DNA of 64,000 bases, taken from assembly GCF_003790525.1 (NCBI RefSeq), contig NZ_CP033635.1. One strand, written 5' to 3'. A program made the position numbers and the translations under genes. Of the stretch, positions 4,815-63,402 are shown piece after piece. Every line of letters starts with the position of its first letter. Position 1 is the first letter of the stretch. The notes beneath the pieces were generated by a model, which saw only the letters and a program-made list of their open reading frames with translations, had not been told where the DNA came from and searched no databases. This DNA comes from Escherichia coli (GTDB taxonomy: Bacteria > Pseudomonadota > Gammaproteobacteria > Enterobacterales > Enterobacteriaceae).

Positions 4815-4897
4815 TTATCTTTTTTACGGCGACACGGCCAAAATAATTGCAGATTTCGTTACCACGACGACCATGACCAATCCAGGAGAGTTAAAGT

Positions 4898-6307: not shown

Positions 6308-6367
6308 TAGTTGAAGTTGTACTACCCGGCGCAACAACGCTGGGATTTAGTTGCCGTGGAAACTTTC

Positions 6368-6393
6368 AGCCCATCTCTGCATGGGCTTTTTTC
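6368..6393 (+). terminator. glnA rho-independent terminator
   Basis: Hairpin agcccatctctgcatgggct followed by TTTTTT. Confidence 0.7.
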
Positions 6394-6442
6394 TCCGTCA
6401 ATTCTCTGATGCTTCGCGCTTTTTATCCGTAAAAAGCTATAA

Positions 6443-6459
6443 TGCACTAAAATGGTGCA
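6443..6459 (+). promoter_or_regulatory. NtrC site overlapping the glnL promoter
   Basis: tgcactaaaatggtgca dyad about 25 nt upstream of the glnL start. Confidence 0.65.
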
Positions 6460-6480
6460 ACCTGTTCAGGAGACTGCTTT

Positions 6481-7530: not shown

Positions 7531-7541
7531 AGGTGACGTTT

Positions 7542-45078: not shown

Positions 45079-45196
45079 AACGCCTCCTGACGCAACAACT
45101 TACCCGCACAAAATAGAATTGTGCTGTACAAACGTCCAGTTTGAAAGAAGTTTCCTGCGAGGCGCTACGCAAAACGATCGTTAATTTTCATTATTT

Positions 45197-45234
45197 TATC
45201 CCACAATATGAGATGGAGTTTATATTGTGGGATA
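45197..45234. promoter_or_regulatory. Perfect 13-bp inverted repeat, candidate operator in the rmuC / IclR-operon intergenic region
   Basis: tatcccacaatat (45197-45209) and atattgtgggata (45222-45234) are exact reverse complements separated by 12 bp, about 60 bp upstream of the IclR-family gene start. Confidence 0.5.
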
Positions 45235-45294
45235 TATCACCTTTTCCCCACGTCATTATGTGGAACACTTCAGCAATATCATCAGGAGAAACGT

Positions 45295-46062: not shown

Positions 46063-46085
46063 ACCATGATTAAAGGAAACGACTA

Positions 46086-47090: not shown

Positions 47091-47709
47091 GACGCTTTTG
47101 CAAAAAACCGGGTTAGTCGCCATTTTACGCGGCGTGAAACCGGATGAGATTGTCGCCATCGGTGAAAAACTGTACGCCGCCGGATTCCGCCTGATTGAGA
47201 TTCCTATGAACTCGCCGGAGGCGTTGCAAAGTATCAGTTTACTGCGCGACGCCCTGCCTAAGGATTGCCTGGTCGGAGCCGGAACTGTGCTTTCGGTAGA
47301 GCAGGTGGTTGCGGTTAAAGAGGCTGGGGGCCAGATTATCGTGATGCCGCATTGCGATACTGCGGTGATCCGTCGCGCCCGTGCGCTGGGTATGTATTGT
47401 GCGCCTGGCGTCGCCACGCCCACCGAAGCCTTTGCTGCCATTGAACATGGTGCTAATGCCATCAAGCTGTTCCCGGCTGAACAAATTACGCCAGAAGTTA
47501 CCAAAGCCTGGCGTGCGGTTATTCCACAATCCGTTCCGATGTTACCGGTTGGCGGTATCACACCGGAAACCATGGCGCGTTATCTGAGCCACGGCGCAAA
47601 CGGCTTTGGCCTCGGTTCTGCGCTATATCACCCCGGCATGACGCCAGAGCAAGTCTATGAAAATGCAGTACTGTTTATGAACGCATGGAACAATTTAAAT
47701 AGCAACTAA
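47080..47709 (+). CDS. KDPG/KDPGal-type class I aldolase (DgoA/Eda family)
   Basis: ATG at 47080 (MPFKTLLQKTGLVAILRGVKPDEI...); motifs AILRG, IEIPMNSP, GAGTVL, CAPGVATPTEAF, GGITPE resemble DgoA. Overlaps the kinase by 11 nt. Confidence 0.8.
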   Translation: MPFKTLLQKTGLVAILRGVKPDEIVAIGEKLYAAGFRLIEIPMNSPEALQSISLLRDALPKDCLVGAGTVLSVEQVVAVKEAGGQIIVMPHCDTAVIRRARALGMYCAPGVATPTEAFAAIEHGANAIKLFPAEQITPEVTKAWRAVIPQSVPMLPVGGITPETMARYLSHGANGFGLGSALYHPGMTPEQVYENAVLFMNAWNNLNSN

Positions 47710-47733
47710 CTGATAAATAAGGATATAAAAGCA

Positions 47734-48708
47734 ATGATAAAACATCTTACCTTACCGAAAAAAATGGCTGCAATGGTACTTCTTGCAGGCGCTGCCCTCA
47801 GCATTGCGCCTGTACAGGCAGCCTCCTACCCAACCAAACAGATCGAGTTAGTCGTTCCCTACGCTGCCGGAGGCGGTACGGATCTGGTTGCCCGTGCCTT
47901 TGCTGATGCCGCCAAAAACCATTTACCCGTCAGCATCGGGGTTATCAATAAACCTGGCGGAGGCGGTGCTATCGGCCTGAGTGAAATCGCCGCTGCCCGC
48001 CCTGGCGGTTACAAAATTGGTTTAGGCACGGTTGAACTGACCACCCTTCCCAGCCTCGGAATGGTGCGTTTTAAAACCAGCGATTTTAAACCCATTGCCC
48101 GTCTAAACGCGGATCCGGCTGCTATCACCGTCCGTTCTGATGCGCCGTGGAATAGCTATGAAGAATTTATGACTTACGCCAAAGCGAATCCCGGAAAAGT
48201 ACGCATTGGTAACTCAGGCACCGGAGCTATCTGGCATCTGGCGGCAGCTGCACTGGAAGACAAAACGGGTGCGAAGTTTTCTCATGTCCCGTATGACGGC
48301 GCAGCCCCTGCCATTACAGGCCTGTTAGGCGGGCATATTGAAGCGGTTTCCGTAAGCCCAGGAGAAGTTATCAACCATGTGAAAGGCGGCAAGCTGAAGA
48401 CACTGGTAGTGATGGCGGATGAGCGAATGAAAACCATGCCTGACGTCCCGACGTTAAAAGAGAAAGGCGTTGATCTCTCCATCGGCACCTGGCGCGGCCT
48501 GATTGTGTCGCAAAAAACGCCGCAGGATGTGGTGGATGTTCTGGCAAAGGCAGCAAAAGAGACGGCTGAAGAGCCTGCATTCCAGGATGCACTGCAAAAG
48601 TTGAATCTCAACTATGCATGGCTTGACGCTGCCAGCTTCCAGACCCAAATCAGCGAACAGGAAAAGTACTTTGACGAGTTGCTGACTCGCCTGGGCCTGA
48701 AAAAATAA
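47734..48708 (+). CDS. tctC: Tripartite tricarboxylate transporter periplasmic substrate-binding protein (TctC/Bug family)
   Basis: 324-aa ORF with signal peptide (MAAMVLLAGAALSIAPVQAAS) and Bug/TctC-like sequence; aggat RBS. Confidence 0.8.
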   Translation: MIKHLTLPKKMAAMVLLAGAALSIAPVQAASYPTKQIELVVPYAAGGGTDLVARAFADAAKNHLPVSIGVINKPGGGGAIGLSEIAAARPGGYKIGLGTVELTTLPSLGMVRFKTSDFKPIARLNADPAAITVRSDAPWNSYEEFMTYAKANPGKVRIGNSGTGAIWHLAAAALEDKTGAKFSHVPYDGAAPAITGLLGGHIEAVSVSPGEVINHVKGGKLKTLVVMADERMKTMPDVPTLKEKGVDLSIGTWRGLIVSQKTPQDVVDVLAKAAKETAEEPAFQDALQKLNLNYAWLDAASFQTQISEQEKYFDELLTRLGLKK

Positions 48709-48724
48709 ACCTGAGGTACGGTTG

Positions 48725-49231
48725 ATGAACACAAAACAGTCTGTTGCTCAACTCGCCGTACCGCACCGCAAGCGCCTTTCATCAACGATGGTGGTGGCGC
48801 TGTTACTTTGTGTGGTTGCTGGCGCGGTGATGATTAATGCCGCTGATTTTCCAGCAACTGCCATTGAAACGGATCCCGGTGCAAGTGCCTTCCCTACCTT
48901 CTATGCCTGTGCCCTGATTGTGCTCGCTGTCTTGCTGGTGATACGCGATCTTTTGCAGGCAAAACCAGCCTCTTGCGCCAACGCACAGGAAAAACCGGCA
49001 TTCAGGAAAACGGCAACAGGAATTGCGGCAACCGCGTTTTATATTGTGACGATGAGCTACTGCGGTTATCTCATTACTACTCCTGTTTTCCTCATCGTCA
49101 TTATGACGTTGATGGGCTACAGGCGATGGGTACTCACACCGGGTATTGCGCTGCTGTTAACGGCAATCCTCTGGTTGCTGTTTGTCGAAGCGTTACAGGT
49201 GCCATTGCCTGTCGGCACATTTTTCGAATAA
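48725..49231 (+). CDS. tctB: Tripartite tricarboxylate transporter small membrane subunit (TctB family)
   Basis: About 168 aa, four predicted hydrophobic segments; sits between TctC-like and TctA-like genes. Start at ATG 48725 (TTG 48722 is an alternative). Confidence 0.65.
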   Translation: MNTKQSVAQLAVPHRKRLSSTMVVALLLCVVAGAVMINAADFPATAIETDPGASAFPTFYACALIVLAVLLVIRDLLQAKPASCANAQEKPAFRKTATGIAATAFYIVTMSYCGYLITTPVFLIVIMTLMGYRRWVLTPGIALLLTAILWLLFVEALQVPLPVGTFFE

Positions 49232-49243
49232 CAGGGGCCAGCA

Positions 49244-50734
49244 ATGTTTGAAAGTGAACTTTTAACTCAGGGTTTTTCGACATTACTCAATAATCCTCAG
49301 GCGCTGCTGTTTGCCACTTTTGGGGTGATGCTGGGTATTGTGATTGGCGCTTTGCCTGGTCTGACAGCGACCATGGGTGTGGCGATTTTGCTGCCTTTCA
49401 CCTACGGCATGGAGCCTGTTTCTGGCTTGTTGATGATTTGCGGCGTCTTTTTTGGTGGCGTCTACGGTGGTTCTATCACCGCAATTTTGCTCAAAATTCC
49501 CGGAACGCCTGCCGCCGCAGCCACCGCTATTGATGGTTATGAGCTGACGAAACAGGGAAAAGCAGGGCTGGCATTGAGTGCCGCCACGTTCTCTTCCTTT
49601 AGTGGCGGAACGCTCAGCATTATCGTGCTGATGTTTCTCTCTCCGGTACTTGCCAGTTGGGCGCTGAAATTTAGTGCCTCGGAGTCCTTCGCCCTGGCAA
49701 CCTTCGGACTGAGCATTATTGCCAGTATTTCCGGTGAGTCACTGATTAAAGGGCTGATTGCCGGGGTTGGCGGATTGCTGATCGCAACGATAGGCCTTGA
49801 TCCAATGGGCGGTTTTCCACGGTTTACAGGTGGATTTGTGGAGCTGATGAATGTGCCATTTATCCCGGTGATGATTGGTTTATTTGCTGCTTCAGAAGCA
49901 TTCCGCTCTATGGAGCAAAACCAGCAAATTCGTCAGGGGGCGAAGGTGGCTATCGGCAGTCTGTTACTGCCCTGGCAAACACTACGCCGCATTGCATTAA
50001 CCATTTTGCGCTCATCAGGATTAGGGGTTTTTATCGGCATGATCCCCGGTGCGGGGGCGGATATTGCAGCTTTTGTTGCCTATAACGAAACTCGTCGTTT
50101 CAGTAAGACACCAGAAAACTTTGGTAAGGGTGAAATTAAAGCTGTGGCCTCCTGTGAGGCAGGCGCGAATGGCTGCACCGGTGGCGCATTGTTACCTATG
50201 CTGACGCTGGGGATCCCTGGCGATGCGGTAACCGCCATCATGCTGGGCGCGTTAACGTTACAGGGAATGCAACCAGGCCCGCTGATGTTTACCGACCACG
50301 GCGATATGGTTTATACACTGTTTGTCGGCATGATCTTCTGTTACTTCATGCTACTAGTTCTTGGACTGCTCTCTTTGAAAGTCATCGGTAATGTGGTGAA
50401 AATTCCCGGCAATATTCTCACACCGATGATCCTCGCACTTTGTGTGGTCGGGACTTATGCGTTGAACAATAGCCTGTTTGATGTTGGCATTATGCTGATT
50501 GCAGGCGTGGTGGGCTATTTCATGCAGAAAGGAGGATATCCGGCATCACCCGTAGTGCTGGCATTGATTATGGGGCCAATGGCGGAAAGTAATTTTCGCC
50601 GTGCGCTGTCGCTTTCTGGTGGGTCACTCGACTTTCTGTATACCCGACCGATAACTCTGGCATTGCTGACTCTGGCAGCCTTTACGCTACTGACGCCAAT
50701 AATCCGCAAAATAATGCGTTTACGGCGTCAATAA
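49244..50734 (+). CDS. tctA: Tripartite tricarboxylate transporter large permease (TctA family)
   Basis: 496-aa polytopic membrane protein with the duplicated TctA/DUF112-type glycine-rich architecture (e.g. GALPGLTATMG, GMIPGAGADIAAF). Confidence 0.8.
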   Translation: MFESELLTQGFSTLLNNPQALLFATFGVMLGIVIGALPGLTATMGVAILLPFTYGMEPVSGLLMICGVFFGGVYGGSITAILLKIPGTPAAAATAIDGYELTKQGKAGLALSAATFSSFSGGTLSIIVLMFLSPVLASWALKFSASESFALATFGLSIIASISGESLIKGLIAGVGGLLIATIGLDPMGGFPRFTGGFVELMNVPFIPVMIGLFAASEAFRSMEQNQQIRQGAKVAIGSLLLPWQTLRRIALTILRSSGLGVFIGMIPGAGADIAAFVAYNETRRFSKTPENFGKGEIKAVASCEAGANGCTGGALLPMLTLGIPGDAVTAIMLGALTLQGMQPGPLMFTDHGDMVYTLFVGMIFCYFMLLVLGLLSLKVIGNVVKIPGNILTPMILALCVVGTYALNNSLFDVGIMLIAGVVGYFMQKGGYPASPVVLALIMGPMAESNFRRALSLSGGSLDFLYTRPITLALLTLAAFTLLTPIIRKIMRLRRQ

Positions 50735-51793: not shown

Positions 51794-52603
51794 ATGGCAA
51801 CAACACAACAATCTGGATTTGCACCTGCTGCATCGCCTCTCGCTTCGACCATCGTTCAGACTCCGGACGACGCGATTGTGGCGGGCTTCACCTCTATCCC
51901 TTCACAAGGGGATAACATGCCTGCTTACCATGCCAGACCAAGGCAAAGCGATGGCCCACTGCCAGTGGTCATTGTAGTGCAGGAAATTTTTGGCGTGCAT
52001 GAACATATCCGCGATATTTGTCGCCGTCTGGCGCTGGAGGGGTATCTGGCTATCGCACCTGAACTTTACTTCCGCGAAGGCGATCCGAATGATTTTGCCG
52101 ATATCCCTACGCTGCTTAGCGGTCTGGTAGCAAAAGTGCCTGACTCGCAGGTGCTGGCCGATCTCGATCATGTCGCCAGTTGGGCTTCCCGCAACGGCGG
52201 CGATGTTCATCGTTTAATGATCACCGGATTCTGCTGGGGTGGACGTATCACCTGGCTGTATGCCGCGCATAATCCACAACTGAAAGCAGCGGTGGCATGG
52301 TACGGCAAATTAACCGGCGATAAGACGCTGAATTCACCGAAACAACCTGTTGATATCGCAACCGATCTTAACGCGCCGGTTCTCGGCTTATATGGTGGTC
52401 AGGATAACAGCATTCCGCAAGAGAGTGTGGAAACGATGCGCCAGGCGCTGCGGGCAGCAAACGCGAAAGCAGAGATTATCGTGTACCCGGATGCAGGGCA
52501 TGCGTTCAACGCCGATTATCGTCCGAGCTATCATGCCGAGTCTGCGAAAGACGGCTGGCAGCGAATGTTGGAATGGTTTACACAGTATGGTGTTAAAAAG
52601 TAA
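51794..52603 (+). CDS. ysgA: Dienelactone-hydrolase-family protein
   Basis: Start taken at MATTQQSGFAPAASPLASTIVQT; alpha/beta hydrolase with CWGG nucleophile elbow. Confidence 0.85.
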   Translation: MATTQQSGFAPAASPLASTIVQTPDDAIVAGFTSIPSQGDNMPAYHARPRQSDGPLPVVIVVQEIFGVHEHIRDICRRLALEGYLAIAPELYFREGDPNDFADIPTLLSGLVAKVPDSQVLADLDHVASWASRNGGDVHRLMITGFCWGGRITWLYAAHNPQLKAAVAWYGKLTGDKTLNSPKQPVDIATDLNAPVLGLYGGQDNSIPQESVETMRQALRAANAKAEIIVYPDAGHAFNADYRPSYHAESAKDGWQRMLEWFTQYGVKK

Positions 52604-52669
52604 CGCCATAGTCGCTAAATCTGATGATTAAGCTCACACAATTTCAACGATTTTTTTAATCTCAAAACC

Positions 52670-52698
52670 ATACAGCATCAAAAAATTTGTTGCTGTAT
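52670..52698. promoter_or_regulatory. 8-bp perfect inverted repeat with A/T-rich 13-bp spacer, candidate regulator site upstream of the hydrolase operon
   Basis: atacagca-tcaaaaaatttgt-tgctgtat; a related copy gcaaaaatttcgttgctgt lies at 52747-52765. Confidence 0.45.
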
Positions 52699-52859
52699 GC
52701 CACTCTTTGACTCCCTTCACATTCGTCATCACACCACCTGCTGAATGCAAAAATTTCGTTGCTGTGCGGCAAACTTTTTTCCTGTTTTGTGCCGCTTTTC
52801 TCCTGAATACTCGTTCTCAGAACAACTGGATCGTTTAAACATCAGACAGGAGATTTACC

Positions 52860-53528
52860 ATGACGCAATCCATTTTTCAGGCTCAACCCTTTGAATTACC
52901 TTTTGATCCGCGCACAACTGCACTGGTCATGATCGACATGCAGCGTGACTTTGTCGAAGCAGGGGGCTTCGGTGAGGCACTGGGCAATGATGTTTCACTG
53001 GTACGCACGGCTATCGCACCATGTACAGAGGTGCTGGCAGCCGCACGTCAAAAAGGAATTATGGTTATTCATACTCGTGAAGGCCATCGTGCAGACTTAA
53101 GCGACTGCCCGCCAGCCAAACTGACGCGCGGCGGAAAAACCTTTATTGGTGAACCAGGACCGATGGGACGCATTCTGGTCAGAGGTGAAGCAGGTCATGA
53201 CATCATTCCTGAACTGTACCCGGTGGCAGGCGAACCGGTGATTGATAAGCCTGGCAAAGGCGCGTTTTATCAAACCGACTTACATCTGATTTTGCAAAAC
53301 CACGGTATCAAGACGCTGATAGTTTGTGGTGTTACAACCGAAGTTTGCGTAACCACCACCGTGCGCGAAGCAAATGATCGTGGCTATGAATGCATTATCC
53401 CGGAAGATTGTGTCGGCTCCTATTTCCCGGAATTCCAGAAATACGCCCTCGAGATGATCAAAGCACAAGGTGCCATTTTCGGTTGGGTTACTGATTCCAA
53501 AGCCATTATTGCAGGCCTGGAAGGCTAA
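52860..53528 (+). CDS. Isochorismatase-fold cysteine hydrolase (amidohydrolase; RutB/BiuH/CSHase-like)
   Basis: 222-aa ORF with aggag RBS; motifs ALVMIDMQRDF (Asp) and LIVCGVTTEVCV (catalytic Cys context) typical of this subfamily. Confidence 0.75.
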   Translation: MTQSIFQAQPFELPFDPRTTALVMIDMQRDFVEAGGFGEALGNDVSLVRTAIAPCTEVLAAARQKGIMVIHTREGHRADLSDCPPAKLTRGGKTFIGEPGPMGRILVRGEAGHDIIPELYPVAGEPVIDKPGKGAFYQTDLHLILQNHGIKTLIVCGVTTEVCVTTTVREANDRGYECIIPEDCVGSYFPEFQKYALEMIKAQGAIFGWVTDSKAIIAGLEG

Positions 53529-53533
53529 CACCG

Positions 53534-54394
53534 ATGGTACAGGTTACGCTTTGCGCATCGTCGTTGGGATATCTTTTCCCGCAGAATGAAACGCAAGATT
53601 TACGTCTACATAGCGCTTTTAAACATGCGGTAAATCTGTATTCAGACGCGGGAACATTCATCACTCTGTTGTGTGCGCAAACGTATCTGAATCTCCCTGA
53701 TGCAGCCAGAGTCTGGCTACCTGAATGTTGGGACTGGCGAAGAGAGATTGCCCATTCAGATCCCATTCAGTTAACCCCAGGCTTACTGCGGACACCTCGA
53801 TTTTGTGTGGCGCTCGAAAACGCAACGCTCTGGCAGTCGCCATTTGTGGGGGGAATGCTGACACTTGAGGCATTCCCTTTGGTTTTCCAGCACTACCCAA
53901 CGATGGCATCGCAACGGCTTTTATTTTGTCTGGAACATAACGTTCAAAGCACATTGCACCTGCCGGATAGTCTCACGCACCAGGGATTAGCGATTATGGA
54001 GCATCCAGATGCGCTGGAACGCCAGGTGCCACAACTGATCGGCTTTGGTAAAGGCTTAACGCCCGATGGAGATGACTATTTGTTGGGCTATCTGGCAGCA
54101 CTCTGGTTATGGCAACTCCCTGCACCACTTGCCGATCATCAATACCGGTTGCAGCAGGTAATTGATCAACATGCGCACAACACCACGGATATCAGTCGTC
54201 ATTATCTGGAGCGTGCGCTTCAGGGACATTTTTCAGAACCGATTTGCCAGTTACTCGCACAACTGGTTGGGAGTGCATCGGCAATGACAATCGCATCCTG
54301 TGCAGAACAGGTCATGCAATTTGGCGCAACGTCAGGAGTAGATTGCCTTGCAGGAATGCTGCATGGCTTTCGAACCCTGAACACCATAAATTGA
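53534..54394 (+). CDS. DUF2877-family protein (YahE/YlbF-like)
   Basis: 286-aa ORF starting 5 nt after the preceding stop; resembles YahE / AllH-type proteins that accompany FdrA-like genes (from memory). Confidence 0.6.
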   Translation: MVQVTLCASSLGYLFPQNETQDLRLHSAFKHAVNLYSDAGTFITLLCAQTYLNLPDAARVWLPECWDWRREIAHSDPIQLTPGLLRTPRFCVALENATLWQSPFVGGMLTLEAFPLVFQHYPTMASQRLLFCLEHNVQSTLHLPDSLTHQGLAIMEHPDALERQVPQLIGFGKGLTPDGDDYLLGYLAALWLWQLPAPLADHQYRLQQVIDQHAHNTTDISRHYLERALQGHFSEPICQLLAQLVGSASAMTIASCAEQVMQFGATSGVDCLAGMLHGFRTLNTIN

Positions 54395-54488
54395 TTTCAA
54401 CCTTTTCTCCCGTAGCCCGTTTATGGGGCTACACGGGGATGCTTTGCCCGAATTTTGCTATCGGGCGGAATGAAACAGGCGTAACAGC

Positions 54489-56048
54489 ATGAAAGTTAAA
54501 TATAAAGTTTTCAGTAATCTTTATCAGGACTCAGTTTCTCTGATGCAGATTTCCGCGCAAATCAGCAAGTTGCCCGGTATTCAACAGGCCTCGGTCGTCA
54601 TGGGAACACCCAATAATCTCGAGCAATTGAGCGATGCGGGTCTGGGTAACGAAATCAACGCCAGTCCCAATGATTTAGTGATTGCAGTCATGGGTGAAGA
54701 AGATATTTGCAATGAAGCACTGGTACTGGCCCAGCAACGTCTGACCAGCAAACCCGATGATGAAACGGATAGTGGCATTAAAACACCGGAAAAGGTCAGC
54801 CTGGAAATGGCACTGGAAGCCGAGCCCGAAGCCAACCTGGCACTCATTTCTGTACCGGGAGACTACGCCGCCGCCGAAGCAATTAAAGCGTTAAACCTCG
54901 GAATGAACGTGATGATGTTCAGCGATAACGTCAGTATCGTGCAGGAAAAATCCATCAAAACGCTTGCCCGAGAACGTCAGCGCATCGTAATGGGACCTGA
55001 CTGTGGAACCGCCATTGTTAACGGCATTCCGTTAGGCTTCGCTAATGTGGTGAAACGCGGAGCAATTGGTGTTATTGGCGCGTCAGGCACCGGGCTACAG
55101 GAAGTGACTTGCCGAATCGACCAGCTCGGAGCGGGTATTTCTCAGGCGTTGGGAACAGGCGGACATGATCTCAGTGAAGAGATTGGTGGAATATCGATGC
55201 TCTTCGCTTTAGATGCGCTGGCGCAAGACGATGAAACTCGCGTGATTGTGCTTATTTCAAAACCGCCTTCACCGATCGTTGCCCGGACTATTCTGGAGCG
55301 TGCCGAGGCTTGTGGAAAACCCGTGGTGGTGAATTTCCTCGGTGCGAATCCGCATGATCTGGCACGTCCCAATATCACCGCGGCCACCACACTTGCCAGC
55401 GCCGCAAATATCGCCGTGGCGTTACTGAATGATCAACCACTTCCGACTATCGAGACCGAAATTTCCTGCGACGATCTCACAATGTTACAAAACGCCTGCC
55501 AGCGCCTGCCAGCCCATCGCCAGGCGATACGCGGTGTTTTCGCCGGAGGAACCTTCTGCTACGAAGCGCAACTTATCTGCCAACAAAAGGGATTCAGCGC
55601 AGCCTCCAATACGCCAGTTGCGGGTAATCGTGCTCTGGCAAATATCTGGCAAAGCGAAGATCACACGTTGATCGATATGGGCGACGATGATTTCACCCGT
55701 GGCAAACCGCATCCAATGATCGACCCGACTCTGCGCAATCAACGTCTGCTCAACGAACTCAACGACTCACACACTGCCGTCGTGTTATTCGACCTGGTAC
55801 TTGGTTATGGCGCTTCCACGACGCCTGCCAGCGAATTACTGGACCAACTTTCACACATCGACATGAATAACGCACCGTTGCTGATTGCGCACGTTTGCGG
55901 AACGGAAGCTGATCCGCAAATACGCAGTCAGCAGATAAGCGCACTACAAAATGCAGGGGTCATCATCGCCAGCAGCAATGCACAGGCGGCGTTATGGGCC
56001 AGCACCGTTGCACAGACTCAGTTGCAGAAAAAGGGGCTAAACGCATGA
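54489..56048 (+). CDS. FdrA/YahF-like protein (succinyl-CoA-synthetase-alpha-like, CoA-binding fold)
   Basis: 519-aa ORF with Gly-rich nucleotide/CoA-binding-like segments (VIGASGTGLQEV, GTGGHD). Confidence 0.7.
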   Translation: MKVKYKVFSNLYQDSVSLMQISAQISKLPGIQQASVVMGTPNNLEQLSDAGLGNEINASPNDLVIAVMGEEDICNEALVLAQQRLTSKPDDETDSGIKTPEKVSLEMALEAEPEANLALISVPGDYAAAEAIKALNLGMNVMMFSDNVSIVQEKSIKTLARERQRIVMGPDCGTAIVNGIPLGFANVVKRGAIGVIGASGTGLQEVTCRIDQLGAGISQALGTGGHDLSEEIGGISMLFALDALAQDDETRVIVLISKPPSPIVARTILERAEACGKPVVVNFLGANPHDLARPNITAATTLASAANIAVALLNDQPLPTIETEISCDDLTMLQNACQRLPAHRQAIRGVFAGGTFCYEAQLICQQKGFSAASNTPVAGNRALANIWQSEDHTLIDMGDDDFTRGKPHPMIDPTLRNQRLLNELNDSHTAVVLFDLVLGYGASTTPASELLDQLSHIDMNNAPLLIAHVCGTEADPQIRSQQISALQNAGVIIASSNAQAALWASTVAQTQLQKKGLNA

Positions 56049-57469
56049 ATACCTTATTTAATCAGCCTTTGAAGGTTGTGAACGCGGGACTACACAGTTT
56101 TGCTGACAATATTCAACATGCCGGGGGAAGCGCAATTGCACTCAACTGGCAGCCACCAGCACAAGGCGATATTGACGCTGGATTGGATCTGGCATCGTTG
56201 CTACGTCATCCCCTGGTAGAAAATGCCAACCAAATCGCCATGACACGTTATCTCGAAGCACAGCCCGTGCTGGTGGATGTCATGCTCGCTAAAGAGGCCA
56301 TTCCAGAAATGGCTGAACAAAAACGTATTTTGCACTCTGGCCCGCCGATTGCCTGGGAAGAGATGTGTGGTCCGGTAAAAGGGGCGATTATTGGTGCCAT
56401 GCTGTACGAAGGTTGGGCCACCAGCCAGCAAGACGCTGAAAACCAAATAAACGCAGGCGAAATCGACCTTGCCCCTTGTCATCATTATCACGCGGTTGGC
56501 CCAATGGCAGGCATCATCAGCCCGTCGATGCCGTTATGGGTGGTAGAAAACAAAACCAACGGCCACCGTACTTTTAGCAATTTCAATGAAGGTCTGGGTA
56601 AGGTTCTCCGTTTTGGCGCCAATAACGATGAAGTTCTCAATCGTCTGGCCTGGATGCGCGATGAACTGGCGCCGGCAATGAAAGCAGCAATCGCACAACA
56701 CGGCGAGCTGGAACTCAAGCCATTAATGGCGCAGGCGCTGCATATGGGGGATGAAGTTCATAACCGCAATGCTGCCGCTACCGGTTTGCTGATTAAGCGC
56801 CTGCTCCCGGCATTGCTGGCCTGCTCTCTTCCACAGGAACATATCCAGCGCGTCGTGGCATTTATCACCGGTAACGATCACTTCTTCCTCAATCTTTCGA
56901 TGGCCGCCTGTAAAGCAATGATGGATGCCGCCGCCAATGTACCGTTCAGTTCAATGGTTACGGTGATGGCGCGTAACGGGGTGAATTTTGGTATTCGGCT
57001 TTCCGGTACTGGCGATCGCTGGTTCCAGGCTCCTGCCAATGCCGTTGAAGGTCTGTTCTTCCCCGGATTTGGCGTCGACGATGCCGCTGCTGACCTGGGT
57101 GATAGCGCAATTACTGAAACCGCAGGTGTGGGTGGCTTCGCGATGGCGTCGTCTCCGGCGATCGTCAAATTTGTGGGAGGCACCCCTGCCGATGCCACCA
57201 ATAACAGCCGTCGGATGCAAGCCGTCACCCTCGGCGGTAACCCCGCATTTACACTTCCAGCCCTCAATTTTGCCCCCACCGCAGCAGGGATTGATGCGCG
57301 TAAAGTGACCGATCGCGGCATTTTACCGGTCATCAATACGGGTATCGCCCACAAACAAGCGGGGGTCGGGCAAATTGGTGCCGGGATCACCACTGCGCCG
57401 ATGGCCTGTTTTGTCGCCGCTGTACGTGCACTGGCGGAGATCGTCGCAAAGGAGAACCATCATGGTTAA
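56045..57469 (+). CDS. DUF1116-family protein (YahG/YlbE-like)
   Basis: Start at ATG 56045 overlapping the FdrA-like stop (ATGA); aagggg RBS 8 nt upstream; 474 aa. Confidence 0.65.
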   Translation: MNTLFNQPLKVVNAGLHSFADNIQHAGGSAIALNWQPPAQGDIDAGLDLASLLRHPLVENANQIAMTRYLEAQPVLVDVMLAKEAIPEMAEQKRILHSGPPIAWEEMCGPVKGAIIGAMLYEGWATSQQDAENQINAGEIDLAPCHHYHAVGPMAGIISPSMPLWVVENKTNGHRTFSNFNEGLGKVLRFGANNDEVLNRLAWMRDELAPAMKAAIAQHGELELKPLMAQALHMGDEVHNRNAAATGLLIKRLLPALLACSLPQEHIQRVVAFITGNDHFFLNLSMAACKAMMDAAANVPFSSMVTVMARNGVNFGIRLSGTGDRWFQAPANAVEGLFFPGFGVDDAAADLGDSAITETAGVGGFAMASSPAIVKFVGGTPADATNNSRRMQAVTLGGNPAFTLPALNFAPTAAGIDARKVTDRGILPVINTGIAHKQAGVGQIGAGITTAPMACFVAAVRALAEIVAKENHHG

Positions 57470-58418
57470 GCCACTGGCTGTCGTCGCGGTTGGCGGCAAT
57501 GCGCTCATTCAGGACGAGCAACGCAATAGTATTCCCGATCAATATGTTGCAGTGATGGAAAGCGTGCAGCATATCGTTGATATGGTTGAAGCCGGATGGG
57601 ACCTGGTGCTAACCCACGGTAATGGCCCGCAGGTGGGCTTTATTCTGCGCCGCTCTGAACTCGCCAGTAACGAAGTTTCTCCGGTTCCACTTGATTACGC
57701 CGTGGGTGATACACAAGGTGCAATTGGCTACATGTTCCAGAAAGCACTGCATAACGAATTGGCTCGCCGTGGCATAAACAAACCGGTAATTGCCCTGGTG
57801 ACACAAACGCGAGTCAGCCCACATGACGATGCTTTCGCCAGCCCCAGTAAACCAATTGGCGCGTTTCTCGATGAAGCAACGGCCCAACAACGCCAACAAC
57901 AACTCGGCTGGACGCTGATGGAGGACGCCGGGCGTGGTTGGCGGCGTACAGTTCCCTCTCCTGCCCCACTGGAAGTTATTGAGCACGACACCATCGCTCA
58001 CCTGGTGCGCCAGGGATATCTGGTTATTGCCTGCGGCGGCGGCGGTATTCCGGTGGTGCGAGACGGACAACAACTGAAAGGTGTAGAAGCCGTGATCGAT
58101 AAAGATCTGGCCTCCGCGCTGCTCGCCAGTCAGTTAGGCGCAGATCTGCTGGTGATCCCCACCGGTGTAGAAAAAGTGGCGATTAACTTTGGTACACCAC
58201 AACAACAGTGGCTCGACGCTATCAGCGTTGCCGAAGCGCAAACGCTGTTGCGGGAAGGTCAGTTTGGTGTCGGCAGTATGCAACCCAAAGTGGAAGCCAT
58301 TGTTGATTTCATCAATGCCAGCCAGCAACAAGGCAAACAGGCCAGCGGCCTGATTACTTCACCGCAAACCATAAAAGCAGCCCTGGCGCATCAGAGCGGT
58401 ACATGGATAACCCTTTAA
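57462..58418 (+). CDS. Carbamate kinase
   Basis: Start at ATG 57462 (MVKPLAVVAVGGNALIQ...), aggag RBS; amino-acid-kinase-fold motifs (VLTHGNGPQVG, IACGGGGIPVV); 318 aa. Confidence 0.8.
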   Translation: MVKPLAVVAVGGNALIQDEQRNSIPDQYVAVMESVQHIVDMVEAGWDLVLTHGNGPQVGFILRRSELASNEVSPVPLDYAVGDTQGAIGYMFQKALHNELARRGINKPVIALVTQTRVSPHDDAFASPSKPIGAFLDEATAQQRQQQLGWTLMEDAGRGWRRTVPSPAPLEVIEHDTIAHLVRQGYLVIACGGGGIPVVRDGQQLKGVEAVIDKDLASALLASQLGADLLVIPTGVEKVAINFGTPQQQWLDAISVAEAQTLLREGQFGVGSMQPKVEAIVDFINASQQQGKQASGLITSPQTIKAALAHQSGTWITL

Positions 58419-58434
58419 TTCTCTGGAGAACACA

Positions 58435-58824
58435 ATGACTACAACGCTTTTAGCCGTTAACGGAACGCTGATGCGCGGCCTGGAACTCAACCCAAATATG
58501 CAAAAAGCGGGCGGTATTTTTGTCCGTGAAGACCGAACTGACGCCCATTACCGGTTGTGGAGTATTAATGATCGCCATCCGGGAATGATTCGCGTGAATG
58601 AAGGAGGAACACACGTCGACGTAGAAATTTGGCAATTACCGCTGGCCAGTTTTGCCGCTCTGTTAATGAGCGAACCCGCTGGGCTGGCAATTGGCAAAAT
58701 CAAACTTGCCGATGGTAGCGAAGTGCTGGGCGTACTGGCAGAAAACTGGCTGACCGAAGGCCAACGGGAAATTACAGAACTGGGTAGCTGGCGCAAATAC
58801 ACCGGGCATTTTCATACTGTGTAA
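58435..58824 (+). CDS. AIG2 / gamma-glutamylcyclotransferase-like small protein
   Basis: 129-aa ORF; N-terminal LLAVNGTLMRG resembles the GGCT/AIG2 fold; ggag RBS. Confidence 0.55.
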   Translation: MTTTLLAVNGTLMRGLELNPNMQKAGGIFVREDRTDAHYRLWSINDRHPGMIRVNEGGTHVDVEIWQLPLASFAALLMSEPAGLAIGKIKLADGSEVLGVLAENWLTEGQREITELGSWRKYTGHFHTV

Positions 58825-58849
58825 CGCGCATTTATAAAGGGAACATACT

Positions 58850-60073
58850 ATGCGTAAAAAAGAAGAGAATCTGAATACGGCATCAGGATTGCGTATTGCC
58901 ATGATTTTGCTGGGTATTGCCGTCACACCTGTGCTGTTGTCATCCTCAAGCCTCGGCAATCAACTTTCCAGCGGCAGTTTAATTAGCGTCGTATTGTTAG
59001 GCGGCGTCATTCTGACCTTACTTTCAGCCATCACCATTAGCGTGGGAGAAAAAGCCCGCCTACCAACGTATGGCATTGTGAAATATTCGTTTGGCGAAAA
59101 AGGGGCCATCGCCATTAACATTTTGATGGCGATAAGTCTGTTCGGCTGGATTGCCGTTACCGCCAATATGTTTGGTCATTCGGTACATGACTTACTGGCT
59201 CAACATGGACTGGAAGTTCCACTGGCACTGTTAGTGGCGGCTGGCTGTGTCATTTTTGTCGCCTCTACGGCATTTGGCTTTGCCGTTCTGGGAAAAATTG
59301 CCCAGGTTGCCGTGCCGGTTATCGCGCTGGTGCTGTGTTACATCCTCTATGTGGCAACCCATACCGAAGTGGCAGTACCAGCGGCGATTGTGGAGATGAA
59401 TACAGGTGTCGCCGTTTCCACCGTTGTTGGCACCATTATTGTGCTGGTTGCCACACTGCCTGATTTCGGTAGTTTTGTGCATAACCGCAAACATGCGCTG
59501 ATTGCCGCAGGCGTGACGTTTCTGGTTGCCTACCCTCTGCTCTACTGGGCGGGTGCAACGCCGAGCGCCATTAGTGGTCAGGGATCTTTACTGGGTGCGA
59601 TGGCGGTATTCGGTGCGGTTCTGCCTGCGGCGCTGTTGTTGATTTTCGCCTGCGTCACCGGTAACGCGGGCAATATGTTCCAGGGCACGCTGGTGGTTTC
59701 CACACTGCTTACCCGCTTTCCCAAATGGCAGATTACCGTGGCGCTGGGTATCCTTTCCGCCATCGTAGGCAGTATGGATATTATGGCGTGGTTTATTCCG
59801 TTTCTGCTGTTCCTGGGTATCGCCACGCCACCCGTTGCCGGAATTTATATCGCTGACTTTTTCTTTTATCGCCGTAATGGCTATCAAGAGTCAGTGTTAG
59901 CCCAGGAGTCACAGATTAAAGTGCTGACATTCGCAGCATGGATCATAGGCGCAGCGGTTGGCTTTATGACCGTAAAAGGCTTATTCACCCTGACGACGAT
60001 CCCTTCGGTAGACTCGATTCTGGTGGCATGTATCGCTTATGCGATTCTCAGTCGGGCAAGTCAACACCGCTAA
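58850..60073 (+). CDS. NCS1-family nucleobase:cation symporter (cytosine/hydantoin/allantoin permease-like)
   Basis: 407-aa ORF with about 12 hydrophobic segments; resembles CodB-type permeases. Confidence 0.7.
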   Translation: MRKKEENLNTASGLRIAMILLGIAVTPVLLSSSSLGNQLSSGSLISVVLLGGVILTLLSAITISVGEKARLPTYGIVKYSFGEKGAIAINILMAISLFGWIAVTANMFGHSVHDLLAQHGLEVPLALLVAAGCVIFVASTAFGFAVLGKIAQVAVPVIALVLCYILYVATHTEVAVPAAIVEMNTGVAVSTVVGTIIVLVATLPDFGSFVHNRKHALIAAGVTFLVAYPLLYWAGATPSAISGQGSLLGAMAVFGAVLPAALLLIFACVTGNAGNMFQGTLVVSTLLTRFPKWQITVALGILSAIVGSMDIMAWFIPFLLFLGIATPPVAGIYIADFFFYRRNGYQESVLAQESQIKVLTFAAWIIGAAVGFMTVKGLFTLTTIPSVDSILVACIAYAILSRASQHR

Positions 60074-60150
60074 TTCCTGGGTATACTCAGGCAATGATTA
60101 CGGCTGAATCTGGAGAGATTCAGCCACTTTACCACTGACCAGGAAGCCTT

Positions 60151-61047
60151 ATGTTCATCTCAGACGAAACGCTTCGTGTTATTCATCTGGTCGCCAGACA
60201 CCAGAGCATTACCACCGCAGCCGAGCAGTTAAATAAAGTCCCTTCCGCCATCAGTTACACCATCAAGAAAGCGGAAGAGAGCCTGGGCGTTGAACTGTTC
60301 ATTCGTAAGGGACGCTATATTGAATTATCGCCAGCGGGAAGTTACTTCATCGAACATAGCAAAACTATTCTTGGCGACCTGGAAGCATTAAAGCGCAACA
60401 CAGTGCTGATTCACGATGGTATTGAGCGTGAACTGACAATTGCGGTAAACAATATTATTCCTGGTGATTTGCTGGTGGCATTTATTCGAGATTTTGAACG
60501 GCAATTCACATCAACAACACTGACGGTAGATCTTGAGGTATACAACGGCTGCTGGGATGCGCTGTACAGTAAGCGTGCCGATCTGGTCTACGGTGCTCCT
60601 CATGCAGTGCCAAGCAGTGAAGGCATCATTAGCGAACCGGTCGGACAAATGGAATGGGATTTTGTCGTCAGCCCACTCCACCCACTGGCAGCGAAGCGGC
60701 ATCCATTAGAAAACAGTGAATTGCGTCATTATCCAGCGGTTTGTATCCGCGATACCTCCGTTAACTTCCCCCCGATGCAAGCCTGGTTGTTGGAAGGACA
60801 AAAACCCATTTTTGTTCCTGACTTCGCTACGGCAATCGCCTTAATAGAACAAAACGTCGGTATTGGTTATATTCCACATCATCTGGCATTGCCGTTATTG
60901 AACAGCGGTAAATTGCTTAAAAAGCCAATGCGCGAACATAAACACGCCACCAAGTTATTTCTTGCCGCTCGTTCCGATGGTATGGGCAAAGCCTGTCAGT
61001 GGTGCATAGAATATTTAAGAAATCCGCAATTAATTTTCTGTTCCTGA
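60151..61047 (+). CDS. LysR-family transcriptional regulator
   Basis: 298-aa ORF with N-terminal LysR HTH (LVARHQSITTAAEQLNKVPSAISYTIKKAEESLGVELFIR) and substrate-binding domain. Confidence 0.8.
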   Translation: MFISDETLRVIHLVARHQSITTAAEQLNKVPSAISYTIKKAEESLGVELFIRKGRYIELSPAGSYFIEHSKTILGDLEALKRNTVLIHDGIERELTIAVNNIIPGDLLVAFIRDFERQFTSTTLTVDLEVYNGCWDALYSKRADLVYGAPHAVPSSEGIISEPVGQMEWDFVVSPLHPLAAKRHPLENSELRHYPAVCIRDTSVNFPPMQAWLLEGQKPIFVPDFATAIALIEQNVGIGYIPHHLALPLLNSGKLLKKPMREHKHATKLFLAARSDGMGKACQWCIEYLRNPQLIFCS

Positions 61048-61079
61048 AGATCCACATCATACCTGGCATACATAGCAAA

Positions 61080-61105
61080 ATGGCTTCCGGTGTTGGAAGC
61101 CATTA
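61080..61105. terminator. Bidirectional terminator between the LysR gene and metE
   Basis: Hairpin aatggcttccggtgttggaagccatt. Confidence 0.6.
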
Positions 61106-61140
61106 TTGTGCTGCAATTTACAATGACTCGTTAATACTCA

Positions 61141-63402
61141 TCATCCCCGACGCAAATTCTGCGCCGCCTGCACCATGTTCGCCAGTGCCGCGCGGGTTTC
61201 TGGCCAGCCGCGCGTTTTCAGGCCACAGTCCGGGTTGACCCACAGACGCTCTGCCGGAATGCGTTTTGCCGCTTTCTTCAGCAAGGCTTCAATCCATTCC
61301 ACGCTCGGTACGTTTGGCGAGTGAATGTCATAGACGCCAGGACCGATTTCATTTGGATAATCAAACTCTTCGAACGACTCCAGCAACTCCATGTCGGAAC
61401 GCGAGGTTTCGATGGTGATGACGTCTGCGTCCAGCGCCGCAATCGAATCCATGATGTCGTTGAACTCGCAGTAACACATGTGAGTGTGGATTTGTGTGTC
61501 ATCTTTCGCCACAGCGGCGTTGATACGGAAAGCCTCCACGCCCCACTGGAGATAGGCATCCCAGTCGCTGCGACGCAGTGGTAAACCTTCGCGCAATGCC
61601 GGTTCGTCAATCTGAATGATGCCAATTCCAGCGGCTTCCAGGTCCGCGACTTCATCACGCAGCGCCAGCGCAATTTGTTTGGCGATGGTTTCACGGCTGA
61701 CATCTTCACGCGGGAACGACCAGCAGAGAATAGTCACCGGGCCGGTCAACATCCCTTTCACCGGTTTATCAGTCAGGGATTGCGCATATTTTGCCCACTC
61801 CACGGTAATCGGTGCCGGGCGGCTAACGTCACCAATAACAATCGGTGGCTTCACGCAGCGGGAACCGTAGCTCTGTACCCAACCGTTTTGCGTAAAGACA
61901 AAGCCATCCAGATGCTCGCCAAAGTATTCCACCATGTCATTACGCTCGGCCTCGCCATGTACCAGCACATCCAGTCCCAAACGTTCCTGCTCAACAATGG
62001 CCTGCTTGATATGTTCCGCAATGCCTGTGCGGTAGTTGTTGGCGTCGAGATTACCCTTTTTGAAATCCAGACGCAGGGTACGAATCTCCGTGGTTTGCGG
62101 GAAAGAACCAATCGTGGTGGTCGGCCATGCTGGGAGTTTAAAACGCGCACGCTGGGCTTCAGCACGCACTTCATAGACATTCGCACGCTGACTGTCCTGA
62201 GCGGTGATCGCCGCCAGACGCTTTTCTACTGCCGGATTATGTACACGAGTAGAGTGACGACGCGCCTGAATCGGAGCGCTCCACGCTGCCAGAGCTGCCG
62301 TATCACCACTGTTCAACGCATCGCGCAGCAATGCCAGTTCATGACATTTTTGCAGGGCGAAGGCAAACCAGCTTTTCACTTCTGCATCAAGACGTGTTTC
62401 CACACTCAGGTCAATGGGACTGTGCAGCAGTGAGCAGGAAGATGCCACCCACAAATCACGTTTGCCGACAATGTCCTTAATTTGCGCATATTTCTCGGTA
62501 AGATCGGCGCGCCAGACGTTACGACCATTGATAAGACCCGCAGACAGCAGCCAGTCAGAAGGCAGACGCTTGTGCAGTTCAGCAACGTCATCTTTACCAT
62601 GTACAAGATCGACATGCAGACCCTGAACAGGCAGCGCAGTAATCGTGTCGAGATTTGGTGTTACGCCTTCAAAATAGGTGGTCAGCAGCAGTTTCACCTG
62701 TCCCTGGAGCGCGTCGTAAGCGGGTTTGTATGCGTCCAGCCACGCCTGCGGCAGTTCCAGTACCAGCGCGGGTTCATCAATCTGTACCCACTCGATGCCG
62801 CGTTTCGCCAGTTCTGCCAGCACTTGCTGATAAACCGGCAGAATGTCGTTCAGCAGGCTCAGGCGATCAAACTGTTCACCTTTCACTTTACCCAGCCACA
62901 GGTAGGTAACTGGCCCCAGCAGCACAGGTTTCACCTTGTGGCCCAGCGCCAGCGCCTCGTCCACTTCCTCCAGCAGCTGCGTCCAGGTCAGTTTGAACTG
63001 TTGGCCTTTAACGAACTCCGGCACCATGTAGTGATAGTTGGTGTTAAACCATTTGGTCATTTCCGCTGCCGCCGCAGGTTCGCCAGTCGGTGCACGTCCA
63101 CGACCAATACGGAACAGGGTGTCGATATCTACCGAACCATCGTTGTTCTGGTGACGCGCCGGAACATTACCCAGCAGCAGACTGGTGGTCAGTACATGAT
63201 CGTACCAGGCAAAATCGCCCACCGGCAGCAGGTCGATACCCGCTTGCTTTTGTTGCTCCCAGTGACGAGCACGTAATTCACGCCCTACCGCCAGCAGTTC
63301 TTCACGCGTGGAGTTCCCCGCCCAATAACTCTCTTGCGCTTTTTTCAGCTCGCGACGCAGGCCAACGCGAGGGAAACCGAGGGTGTGATTAAGAATTGTC
63401 AT
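61141..63402 (-). CDS. metE: Cobalamin-independent methionine synthase
   Basis: 753-aa [33 protein letters not shown]... Confidence 0.96.

Follow-up and report, generated by a model that had tools for sequence, protein, structure and literature searches.

A compact block of eight genes, here designated g1 to g8, lies between ysgA and metE at positions 52604-61140 of a 64,000-nucleotide stretch of Escherichia coli DNA (contig NZ_CP033635.1 of assembly GCF_003790525.1; hereafter, the window). We propose, with a probability that we put at roughly 0.5, that this cassette provides a LysR-controlled catabolic route for triuret, and probably biuret as well, from which the cell would draw both nitrogen and ATP formed at the substrate level. 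Triuret (carbonyldiurea) and biuret are urea oligomers that form during uric acid oxidation and urea pyrolysis. The original prediction, made by inspection of the window, envisaged import of a ureido or carbamoyl compound followed by amidohydrolysis, carbamoyl transfer and ATP formation by a carbamate kinase; this model is supported and fits all the evidence described below, and since g1 encodes a hydrolase of the triuret hydrolase (TrtA) type, the candidate substrates can now be restricted to the triuret/biuret family. A phosphorolytic, ATP-yielding route for urea oligomers would bring together known kinds of enzymes in a combination not described before. Gene coordinates are those of the open reading frame (ORF) listing and of the RefSeq annotation of a 100%-identical E. 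coli SMS-3-5 record, with the start of g5 placed at 57462 as in RefSeq.

The g1 gene (52860-53528, + strand) encodes a 222-amino acid (aa) isochorismatase-fold cysteine amidohydrolase, as had been predicted, and its best match in the PDB is TrtA (6XIX/6XJ4, 270.6 bits, compared to 237.5 for BiuH, 6AZO, and 104.8 for RutB), with 58.7% identity to TrtA and 53.5% to BiuH. The catalytic triad, D26/K130/C163, is accompanied by E74, K133, and Q203, the counterparts of the substrate-binding Glu72, Lys132, and Gln202 in TrtA numbering, and all six of these residues are present in each of the 78 aligned hydrolases of this fold. Six positions, identified in an alignment of more than 500 sequences, discriminate TrtA (F35, N41, A134, E160, Y187, and I205) from BiuH (Y, Y, S, D, T, and V, respectively), and mutation toward BiuH harms triuret activity; TrtA is reported to be ultraspecific, its activity toward other acyl-ureas not exceeding 0.3% (PMC7948467). 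The g1 protein is of the TrtA type at all six positions (F37, N43, A135, E161, Y188, and I206).

As a control, we scored this signature in every isochorismatase-fold ORF of related loci. These loci were identified by an alignment scan for the small AH_C protein encoded by g6, with one genome per species, which yielded 458 relatives, the best 80 of which were mapped; the maps were built from the longest ORFs and from blastp comparison with the proteins of the window and of K-12 only, and weakly conserved AllH copies were sometimes missed. Besides g1, there are 67 TrtA-like ORFs in these loci, with 65-92% identity to g1; the FNAEYI signature recurs in 66 of them, the single exception reading FNSEYI. 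The BiuH signature was found solely in the second hydrolase of Verrucomicrobia-type loci (YYSDTV in seven, YYADTV in one). With the NCBIfam model of BiuH (NF050097, cutoff 370), g1 scores 279.8, that is, below the cutoff, and the second hydrolase of one such locus (L077) scores 411.8, above it; a neighbor-joining tree splits the TrtA-type and BiuH-type groups, with the solved TrtA on the g1 side. The g1 protein is a TrtA-type hydrolase, for which triuret amidohydrolase activity is predicted.

The hydrolase gene is followed by three genes that match the three co-encoded AllFGH families, next to a carbamate kinase gene. The g2 product (53534-54394, + strand; 286 aa) is an AllH/DUF2877-like subunit (Pfam PF11392, 6.5e-27), g3 (54489-56048, + strand; 519 aa) encodes an AllF/FdrA/YahF-like subunit (NCBIfam FdrA subfamily, 496.4 bits, cutoff 433), and g4 (56045-57469, + strand; 474 aa) encodes an AllG/DUF1116/YahG-like subunit (PF06545, 8.6e-99) and overlaps g3 by 4 nucleotides (nt). 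The carbamate kinase gene g5 (57462-58418, + strand; 318 aa) overlaps g4 by 8 nt, and its product passes the cutoffs of both TIGR00746 arcC (364.4, cutoff 358.25) and PRK12352 (376.7, cutoff 266). The predicted assignment of an FdrA-like/DUF1116/DUF2877 trio with a carbamate kinase is borne out by these scores, and the parallel that had been drawn with the AllFGH set has gained substance, AllFGH having been shown experimentally to be an oxamic transcarbamylase paired with the catabolic carbamate kinase AllK (PMC11326118, PMC9843812). The trio is not orthologous to b0518-b0520, the identity being 40% to AllF, 49% to AllG and 33% (partial) to AllH/YlbF, with similar or higher values for the Yah paralogs (26% to YahE, 42% to YahF, and 46% to YahG); the kinase is 48% identical to YahI and 38% to AllK/YbcF. 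No all genes adjoin the cassette in the RefSeq annotation, so that the linkage to allDCE is absent. Across the mapped loci, g4 is the most conserved enzyme of the cassette (median identity of 79%), and g2 is its fastest-evolving part (40%).

The label "acyl-CoA synthetase FdrA" that g3 carries is misleading because the phospho-histidine loop of SucD (His246, GHAGA loop) is missing in g3 as well as in AllF, YahF, and nine orthologs, where the aligned position reads N/G-I/V; a role for g3 as an acyl-CoA ligase of the succinyl-CoA synthetase type was rejected for want of this histidine. More generally, the entire AllF/FdrA/YahF family lacks the phospho-histidine loop of the succinyl-CoA synthetase alpha subunit, despite the "acyl-CoA synthetase" annotation.

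Oxalurate is the substrate of the one AllF/G/H family member that has been defined biochemically (PMC11326118), and the authors who described allFGHK beside biuH read these genes as an oxalurate pathway (PMC12625717). The cassette could be a second oxalurate route, in which the hydrolase deamidates oxaluramide or another acyl-urea derived from parabanate or from uric acid oxidation, and the trio acts as an isofunctional oxamic transcarbamylase that releases oxamate, a reading with which the purine linkage of the two nearest named relatives of the g8 regulator, PunR and AllS, would agree. We consider this route unlikely given that g1 has the full TrtA signature, and TrtA barely acts on other acyl-ureas, as indicated above (PMC7948467); moreover, in other phyla, the partner of AH_C and the TrtA-type hydrolase is BiuH rather than any of the allantoin genes, and no allB/C/D/E-type genes accompany the cassette in the 80 mapped loci, a partial comparison made against window and K-12 references. 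A duplicate of the oxalurate route would not be needed either, as strains of the SMS-3-5 type normally carry allFGHK too.

The g6 gene (58435-58824, + strand) encodes a 129-aa protein that the original prediction described as AIG2-like. The assignment can be sharpened: the protein combines the GGCT/AIG2-like fold (gamma-glutamyl cyclotransferase-like) with membership in the AH_C family, that is, it is a stand-alone version of the C-terminal domain of allophanate hydrolase (PF21986, 1.8e-41; GGACT is marginal at 0.0012). It aligns with positions 472-595 of the 600 in the allophanate hydrolase profile, the C-terminal end only, and neither an N-terminal amidase-signature domain nor an amidase gene was found in the cassette by profile matching or in the RefSeq annotation. 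The protein corresponds to c4763 of strain CFT073, the structure of which is available under the title "c4763, a uropathogenic E. coli-specific protein" (PDB 5C5Z). The stand-alone AH_C family has 48 invariant columns that include several Arg, His, Glu, Lys, and Tyr residues, a level of conservation that suggests an enzyme, and in the complete allophanate hydrolase, the N and C domains catalyze sequential reactions (PMC5770610). The loci of the Verrucomicrobia type, which consist of genes for a TrtA-type hydrolase, a membrane protein, a true BiuH, and AH_C, with neither trio nor kinase, link AH_C to urea-oligomer chemistry.

Gene order across the mapped loci shows how closely these parts are held together. 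The exact order hydrolase-AllH-AllF-AllG-kinase-AH_C-permease was found in 35 of the 80 loci, at least six of the seven parts in 52, and both the AllF-like and AllG-like genes in 60; the carriers include Enterobacterales, Burkholderiales, Xanthomonadales, Vibrionales, Aeromonas, Shewanella, Halomonas, and two alpha-proteobacteria, and precomputed gene calls show the identical seven-gene order in Paraburkholderia, Photobacterium, and Dyella. The order of this seven-gene core is maintained in gamma-, beta-, and alpha-proteobacteria. Together with the purifying selection described below, this conserved order indicates that the cassette behaves as a functional unit. In Pseudovibrio (L059:7854-16826) and Palleronia (L082:3026-11714), the cassette is split into a hydrolase-AH_C-permease unit and an AllH-AllF-AllG-kinase unit, which in Pseudovibrio lie on opposite strands; these loci suggest that the cassette consists of two functional sub-modules. 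In Rahnella (L024:121-4287, and also L026 and L027), urtBCDE is located directly upstream of the whole cassette, on the same strand, and in a metagenome-assembled genome (MAG) of Chthoniobacter (L086:3920-9003), the stand-alone AH_C gene directly follows urtBCDE, with all the urtB, urtC, urtD, and urtE calls above their equivalog cutoffs. This linkage may point either to a Urt-like system that takes up urea oligomers or to a locus for urea nitrogen in general. Among nitrifiers, comammox and ammonia-oxidizing archaea (AOA) MAGs carry trtA/biuH beside allFGHK and codB, an arrangement that the authors read as two separate pathways (PMC12625717).

Under the scheme that we favor, the g7 permease would import the urea oligomer, and the g1 hydrolase, given its identity to TrtA (59%) and its TrtA specificity residues, would strip a terminal amide as NH3, converting triuret to 1-carboxybiuret. 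The AH_C protein would then handle the unstable N-carboxylated intermediate, most likely by decarboxylating carboxybiuret to biuret; this step is proposed by analogy with the part that this domain plays downstream of the amidase domain in allophanate hydrolase, and it is the weakest of the scheme. The AllH/AllF/AllG-like enzyme, to judge from its one characterized homolog, would move a terminal carbamoyl group onto phosphate to form carbamoyl phosphate, the donor being either biuret, with urea as the leaving product, or carboxybiuret and then allophanate, with carbamate left over. The presumed role of the g5 kinase would be to phosphorylate ADP with carbamoyl phosphate, yielding ATP and leaving carbamate, which decomposes to NH3 and CO2. 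The net outcome would be nitrogen and ATP from a urea oligomer with no need for urease, BiuH, or an allophanate amidase.

The two donors correspond to two orders of events, which cannot be told apart by computation. If AH_C turns carboxybiuret into biuret, from which the trio then generates carbamoyl phosphate and urea, every gene has a role; this order also fits the modular layout, in which a TrtA-type hydrolase, AH_C, and a transporter are combined with either BiuH or the AllH-AllF-AllG-kinase set as alternative sinks, as well as growth on biuret, and the oxamate wasted in the allantoin pathway is a precedent for the discarded urea. In the other order, which we find doubtful although it falls within the favored reading, the trio would act on carboxybiuret and inorganic phosphate (Pi) to give carbamoyl phosphate and allophanate, and then on allophanate and Pi to give carbamoyl phosphate and carbamate, yielding two ATP and all four nitrogens per triuret and no urea, with AH_C in an accessory capacity (stabilizing, channeling, or decarboxylating a side product). 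This variant makes the best use of nitrogen in a urease-negative E. coli. It is consistent with the structure of oxalurate, the sole known substrate of the family, which is an N-carbamoyl-amide with a terminal carboxylate, like carboxybiuret and allophanate (PMC11326118), and with nitrifier contigs: in comammox, allFGHK lies beside trtA/biuH/atzF without the carboxybiuret decarboxylase gene trtB, contigs of ammonia-oxidizing bacteria carry trtB without allFGHK, and AOA pair biuH with allFGHK without atzF (PMC12625717). However, it leaves AH_C without a needed role, although no other small protein of the cassette is as conserved; in the split loci of Pseudovibrio and Palleronia, AH_C belongs to the unit of the hydrolase and the permease instead of that of the trio and the kinase; and the growth of E. 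coli Nissle 1917 on biuret (PMC7924626) would require a triuret impurity or promiscuity of the hydrolase.

This growth phenotype is the one physiological observation that bears on the triuret/biuret proposal. In Biolog PM3 plates, Nissle 1917 grew on biuret as the sole nitrogen source and K-12 MG1655 did not, and the authors named no gene for the difference (PMC7924626). Nissle 1917 carries an intact cassette, with a hydrolase identical to the SMS-3-5 copy (WP_000194414.1), and the cassette is absent from MG1655; the contrast fits the presence and absence of the cassette, a correlation across two strains rather than proof. Triuret is present at about 1 mol% in commercial biuret (PMC7948467).

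Several points weigh against the proposed pathway. The same two strains differ by thousands of other genes, and the measurement was aerobic. We found no experimental work on the eight genes in the literature. The g1 protein is only about 5 identity points closer to TrtA than to BiuH and, judging from the sequence, could have a third specificity within the family, and the trio is only a paralog of AllFGH/YahEFG (26-49% identity), so that its substrate cannot be read off the sequence. His492 in the GAHL motif of the Kluyveromyces lactis allophanate hydrolase aligns with Leu12 of g6, which is invariant in 21 stand-alone homologs; His492 is said, in work by Fan et al. in 2013, to be a key catalytic residue of the C domain. 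With Leu in place of this histidine, simple transfer of the C-domain function to g6 is unsafe. Because E. coli has no urease, the variant in which biuret is split to urea would waste half of the nitrogen. Finally, to our knowledge, the natural abundance of triuret and biuret in gut, urine, and poultry habitats is poorly documented.

The cassette is inserted between ysgA (51794-52603, + strand) on the left and metE (61141-63402, - strand), which converges with g8, on the right. Consistent with the original prediction, ysgA and metE adjoin in K-12 MG1655, where they are spaced by 39 bp and the cassette is absent; K-12 similarity breaks off at the last codons of ysgA and restarts at the metE stop codon, and no flanking direct repeats or mobile-element scars were found at the K-12 junction. 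The interval contains eight intact coding sequences, all on the + strand, in both the ORF listing and the RefSeq annotation, and these are, as anticipated, tightly packed and partly overlapping, the successive gaps from g1 to g8 being 5, 94, -4, -8, 16, 25, and 77 nt. The family assignments proposed for all eight proteins were upheld by profile searches against Pfam and NCBIfam and by PDB sequence matches. The GC content of the region varies between 0.44 and 0.59 per 500 nt, with nothing anomalous. Elsewhere in the window, a second islet absent from K-12 lies between udp and rmuC, at about 44650-50734 (4306913-4312352 in the SMS-3-5 record), and encodes an IclR regulator, a 2-dehydro-3-deoxygalactonokinase-like protein, a KDPGal-aldolase-like protein, and a Bug/TctB/TctA tripartite tricarboxylate transporter; it has been mentioned as a 6-ORF islet of unknown function (PMC3349570).

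Within the species, the cassette is present in 1553 of the 5426 complete E. coli genomes (about 29%), and 1483 records are at least 99% identical to it over the full length. In addition, 82 PLSDB records of conjugative plasmids (78 from Escherichia and 4 from Klebsiella) carry the cassette at about 94.5-95.6% identity. This plasmid-borne form is a second allele of all eight genes, about 94.5% identical, on large conjugative plasmids, many of which come from poultry or from human extraintestinal pathogenic E. coli (ExPEC); in one of these, pVTB929v (L088, NZ_CP178655.1; 7015-15193), it is located between insertion sequence remnants, beside bacteriocin immunity genes and a cluster resembling ABC iron transport genes. 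The paper on avian pathogenic E. coli (APEC) plasmids does not mention the cassette, and the urinary tract infection transcriptome paper mentions only the core all genes. Citrobacter, Lelliottia, and Buttiauxella have the cassette at the same udp-ysgA/metE site, and because of this shared insertion site, loss in K-12-like lineages is favored, so that the K-12 state is more likely to represent the loss of an old locus than SMS-3-5 is to represent a recent gain.

All eight genes are under purifying selection, with dN/dS of 0.06-0.29 between the chromosomal and the 94.5%-identical plasmid copy; compared with Citrobacter and Buttiauxella, dS is saturated, and dN is 0.05-0.46 across the eight genes. 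The absence of the cassette from about 71% of the complete E. coli genomes, along with the lack of a canonical sigma-70 promoter on the + strand upstream of it, might suggest a cryptic or decaying remnant that is functionless in E. coli. We regard this as extremely unlikely: apart from the low dN/dS values, none of the annotated copies inspected has a disrupted ORF, with no pseudogene flags on the eight genes in the SMS-3-5, Nissle 1917, or pVTB929v annotations, and the large number of nearly identical records, the recruitment by 82 conjugative plasmids, and the conservation of upstream motifs all speak for maintenance.

The g7 gene (58850-60073, + strand; 407 aa) encodes a permease that, as predicted, belongs to the NCS1 family (Pfam PF02133 Transp_cyt_pur, 1.7e-14) and is the presumed substrate importer. 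Its scores with CodB (146, cutoff 326) and TIGR00800 (59.4, cutoff 353) are both below the cutoffs, and by this comparison it is a member of NCS1 but not a CodB ortholog. The cassette has been suggested on bioinformatic grounds to function in Rut-like salvage of pyrimidine nitrogen (PMC12928451). The NCS1 family includes permeases for cytosine, uracil, and allantoin, and udp is located nearby, an adjacency that the original prediction took as a possible hint of a pyrimidine-derived substrate. In such a scheme, a CodB-like permease would import cytosine or uracil, a RutB-like hydrolase would cleave ureidoacrylate, and the resulting carbamate would be processed. This is very unlikely to be the case, considering that g1 scores 111.9 bits with the RutB model (TIGR03614, cutoff 377.95) and is far closer to TrtA and BiuH, that no RutA-type ring-opening enzyme or other rut genes are present in the cassette, and that carbamate decomposes without a kinase. 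Outside the Enterobacteriaceae, the cassette occurs in unrelated contexts where the adjacency to udp is absent, so that the hint did not hold up. We rejected the pyrimidine reading on these profile scores and on the genomic context.

In Phytobacter and Kosakonia, the NCS1 permease is replaced by an unrelated, unannotated membrane protein of about 530 aa, with 8-11 predicted transmembrane segments (10-12 as given for the Verrucomicrobia-type loci), that is present in 15 of the 80 loci (for example, L063:10398-11996, L065:7225-8817, L075:7984-9615, L036:11898-13502, and L085:3042-4604); in Verrucomicrobia, its gene is located between those for the TrtA-type hydrolase and BiuH. This protein has no Pfam, NCBIfam, or PDB sequence match. 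A low-confidence structural model (pLDDT 58) matches only 7+7 "UraA-fold" transporters, namely, UraA, SLC26, BicA, SVCT, and AzgA, making the protein a candidate for a new family of triuret/biuret transporters.

The last gene of the cassette, g8 (60151-61047, + strand; 298 aa), encodes the expected LysR-type regulator, which by NCBIfam comparison is neither PunR (286.7, cutoff 345) nor AllS (214.3, cutoff 372), its nearest models. In 51 of the mapped loci, the cassette has a LysR homolog (39-88% identity) beside it, with varying position and orientation, and g8 is probably a dedicated regulator of the cassette. The region upstream of g1 (52604-52859, + strand) is likely to contain the corresponding LysR-type operator and promoter. 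It includes a palindrome at 52669-52699, identified by a repeat search, with 14-nt arms (CATACAGCATCAAA/TTTGTTGCTGTATG) and a 3-nt spacer, and a related 30-nt direct-repeat copy at 52748-52777, 69 nt downstream of the palindrome, a layout that resembles LysR recognition and activation sites. By alignment, a GCATCAA..TTG.TGC element, a second element, TGCAAAA.TTTCGTTGC, and an CTCCTGAATACTC block recur in Citrobacter, Buttiauxella, Edwardsiella, and the plasmid copy; a plain regular expression for the E. coli upstream repeat matched E. coli only, and the partial conservation is visible by alignment.

Searches for other signals in and around the cassette were negative. There was no match to the sigma-70 consensus on the + strand upstream of g1 and no sigma-54 pattern in the control region (the overall count of the latter is at chance level), and the sites found in the sigma-70/terminator consensus scan are no more numerous than in shuffled sequence. 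An Rfam scan of 52400-61300 at E <= 1 gave two sub-threshold hits only and no riboswitch. Between the convergent 3' ends of g8 and metE, folding revealed a hairpin at 61079-61104 with an 11-bp stem (AUGGCUUCCGG/UUGGAAGCCAU); this could possibly be a bidirectional terminator, the folding z-score of the spacer being only -1.07 and the hairpin not being listed by the consensus terminator scan.

The locus itself was catalogued previously: it makes up the left-hand portion of a 16-kb region, the "tkt1 genomic island" of phylogroup B2 ExPEC, described in 2012 between metE and ysgA, but the function of the eight genes was not: they correspond to APECO1_2632-2639, were listed as hypothetical, and the published work studied tkt1 only (PMC3349570). 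The tkt1 island, or GR29 of strain BEN2908, has the same ysgA/metE insertion site, and B2 strains match positions 1-8431 of the query at 99.2%. In Nissle and other B2 strains, an extra 7-kb block of hxlB-like, phosphotransferase system IIBC, tkt1, and RpiR genes separates the LysR gene from metE; SMS-3-5 has the short form of the island, without the tkt1 block and with g8 directly before metE. A 2026 genome paper proposed the Rut-like pyrimidine nitrogen salvage discussed above for GR29 of BEN2908 (PMC12928451). We found no paper that characterizes the substrate of the cluster. In the Nissle 1917 assembly (L093:35219-37577; NZ_CP007799.1 4410219-4412577), pldB is duplicated in tandem just upstream of yigL-bioP-metR-metE, and a truncated fragment of a HAD-hydrolase gene separates the two copies; this duplication could be real or an assembly artefact.

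Carriers of the cassette include Nissle 1917, uropathogenic E. coli (UPEC) of the CFT073 type, and APEC, and its genes have been labeled "UPEC-specific" or "unknown" since at least 2012; the substrate hypothesis turns these orphan genes into a directly testable pathway and offers a possible genetic explanation for the unexplained biuret phenotype of Nissle. More specifically, and with less confidence than we place in the pathway as such, we suggest that the trio may be a new carbamoyltransferase, one that cleaves urea oligomers (biuret, carboxybiuret, and/or allophanate) by phosphorolysis, that AH_C (c4763/5C5Z) may be a new N-carboxy-amide decarboxylase, and that ExPEC and APEC lineages and their ColV-type plasmids would thereby gain access to the products of uric acid oxidation. 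If the pathway is real, the three-subunit transcarbamylase family, whose K-12 paralog yahEFG is an orphan as well, would acquire a second substrate class; E. coli and many other bacteria would "ferment" triuret or biuret to ATP, NH3, and CO2; and the degradation of triuret, biuret, and cyanuric acid would have an energy-conserving branch, with a bearing on fertilizer impurities and on the use of organic nitrogen by nitrifiers. For ExPEC and APEC, the uric acid oxidation products concerned would be those in urine, inflamed tissue, and the uric acid-rich avian gut. The analysis also draws attention to the small g6 protein, which is extremely conserved and whose structure has been solved, and to an unannotated transporter family.

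Among the closest known systems, the triuret/biuret pathway of Herbaspirillum and Rhizobium (TrtA, TrtB, BiuH, and AtzF) shares with the cassette a TrtA-type first enzyme with the same triad, binding, and second-shell specificity residues, and the AH_C protein of the cassette is homologous to the C-terminal domain of the AtzF type. The cassette differs in that it lacks BiuH, the allophanate amidase domain, and TrtB, and has instead a carbamoyltransferase of the AllF/G/H type with a carbamate kinase, so that its route would proceed by phosphorolysis with a gain of ATP instead of by hydrolysis alone; the transporter differs as well, being of the NCS1 family in the cassette compared to the BmpA-NupABC type found beside trtA (PMC12625717). 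The allFGHK genes of E. coli K-12 encode three subunits of the same families followed by a carbamate kinase, and the presumed chemistry would be the same, with an N-carbamoyl-amide and Pi giving carbamoyl phosphate and then ATP. However, the order is F-G-H-K in K-12 and H-F-G-K in the cassette, and allFGHK is linked to allDCE, whereas the trio of the cassette has genes for a TrtA-type hydrolase, AH_C, and a permease as its neighbors. The K-12 yahEFG-yahI-yahJ cluster, whose function is unknown, has the same order as the cassette (DUF2877, FdrA-like, DUF1116, and carbamate kinase) and also includes an amidohydrolase partner, and it is the closest K-12 paralog for the AllF-like subunit (42%) and the kinase (48%); in this case, the differences are that YahJ is a metal-dependent amidohydrolase, that AH_C and the permease are absent, and that the identities are only 26-48%. 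The arginine and agmatine deiminase pathways follow the same logic, in which deimination or amidohydrolysis is followed by phosphorolytic carbamoyl transfer and by substrate-level ATP formation by a carbamate kinase. These pathways employ transcarbamylases of the ornithine/putrescine transcarbamylase (OTCase/PTCase) fold that act on N-carbamoyl amines, in contrast to the unrelated three-subunit AllF/G/H-type transferase of the cassette, for which the carbamoyl donor would be an acyl-urea.

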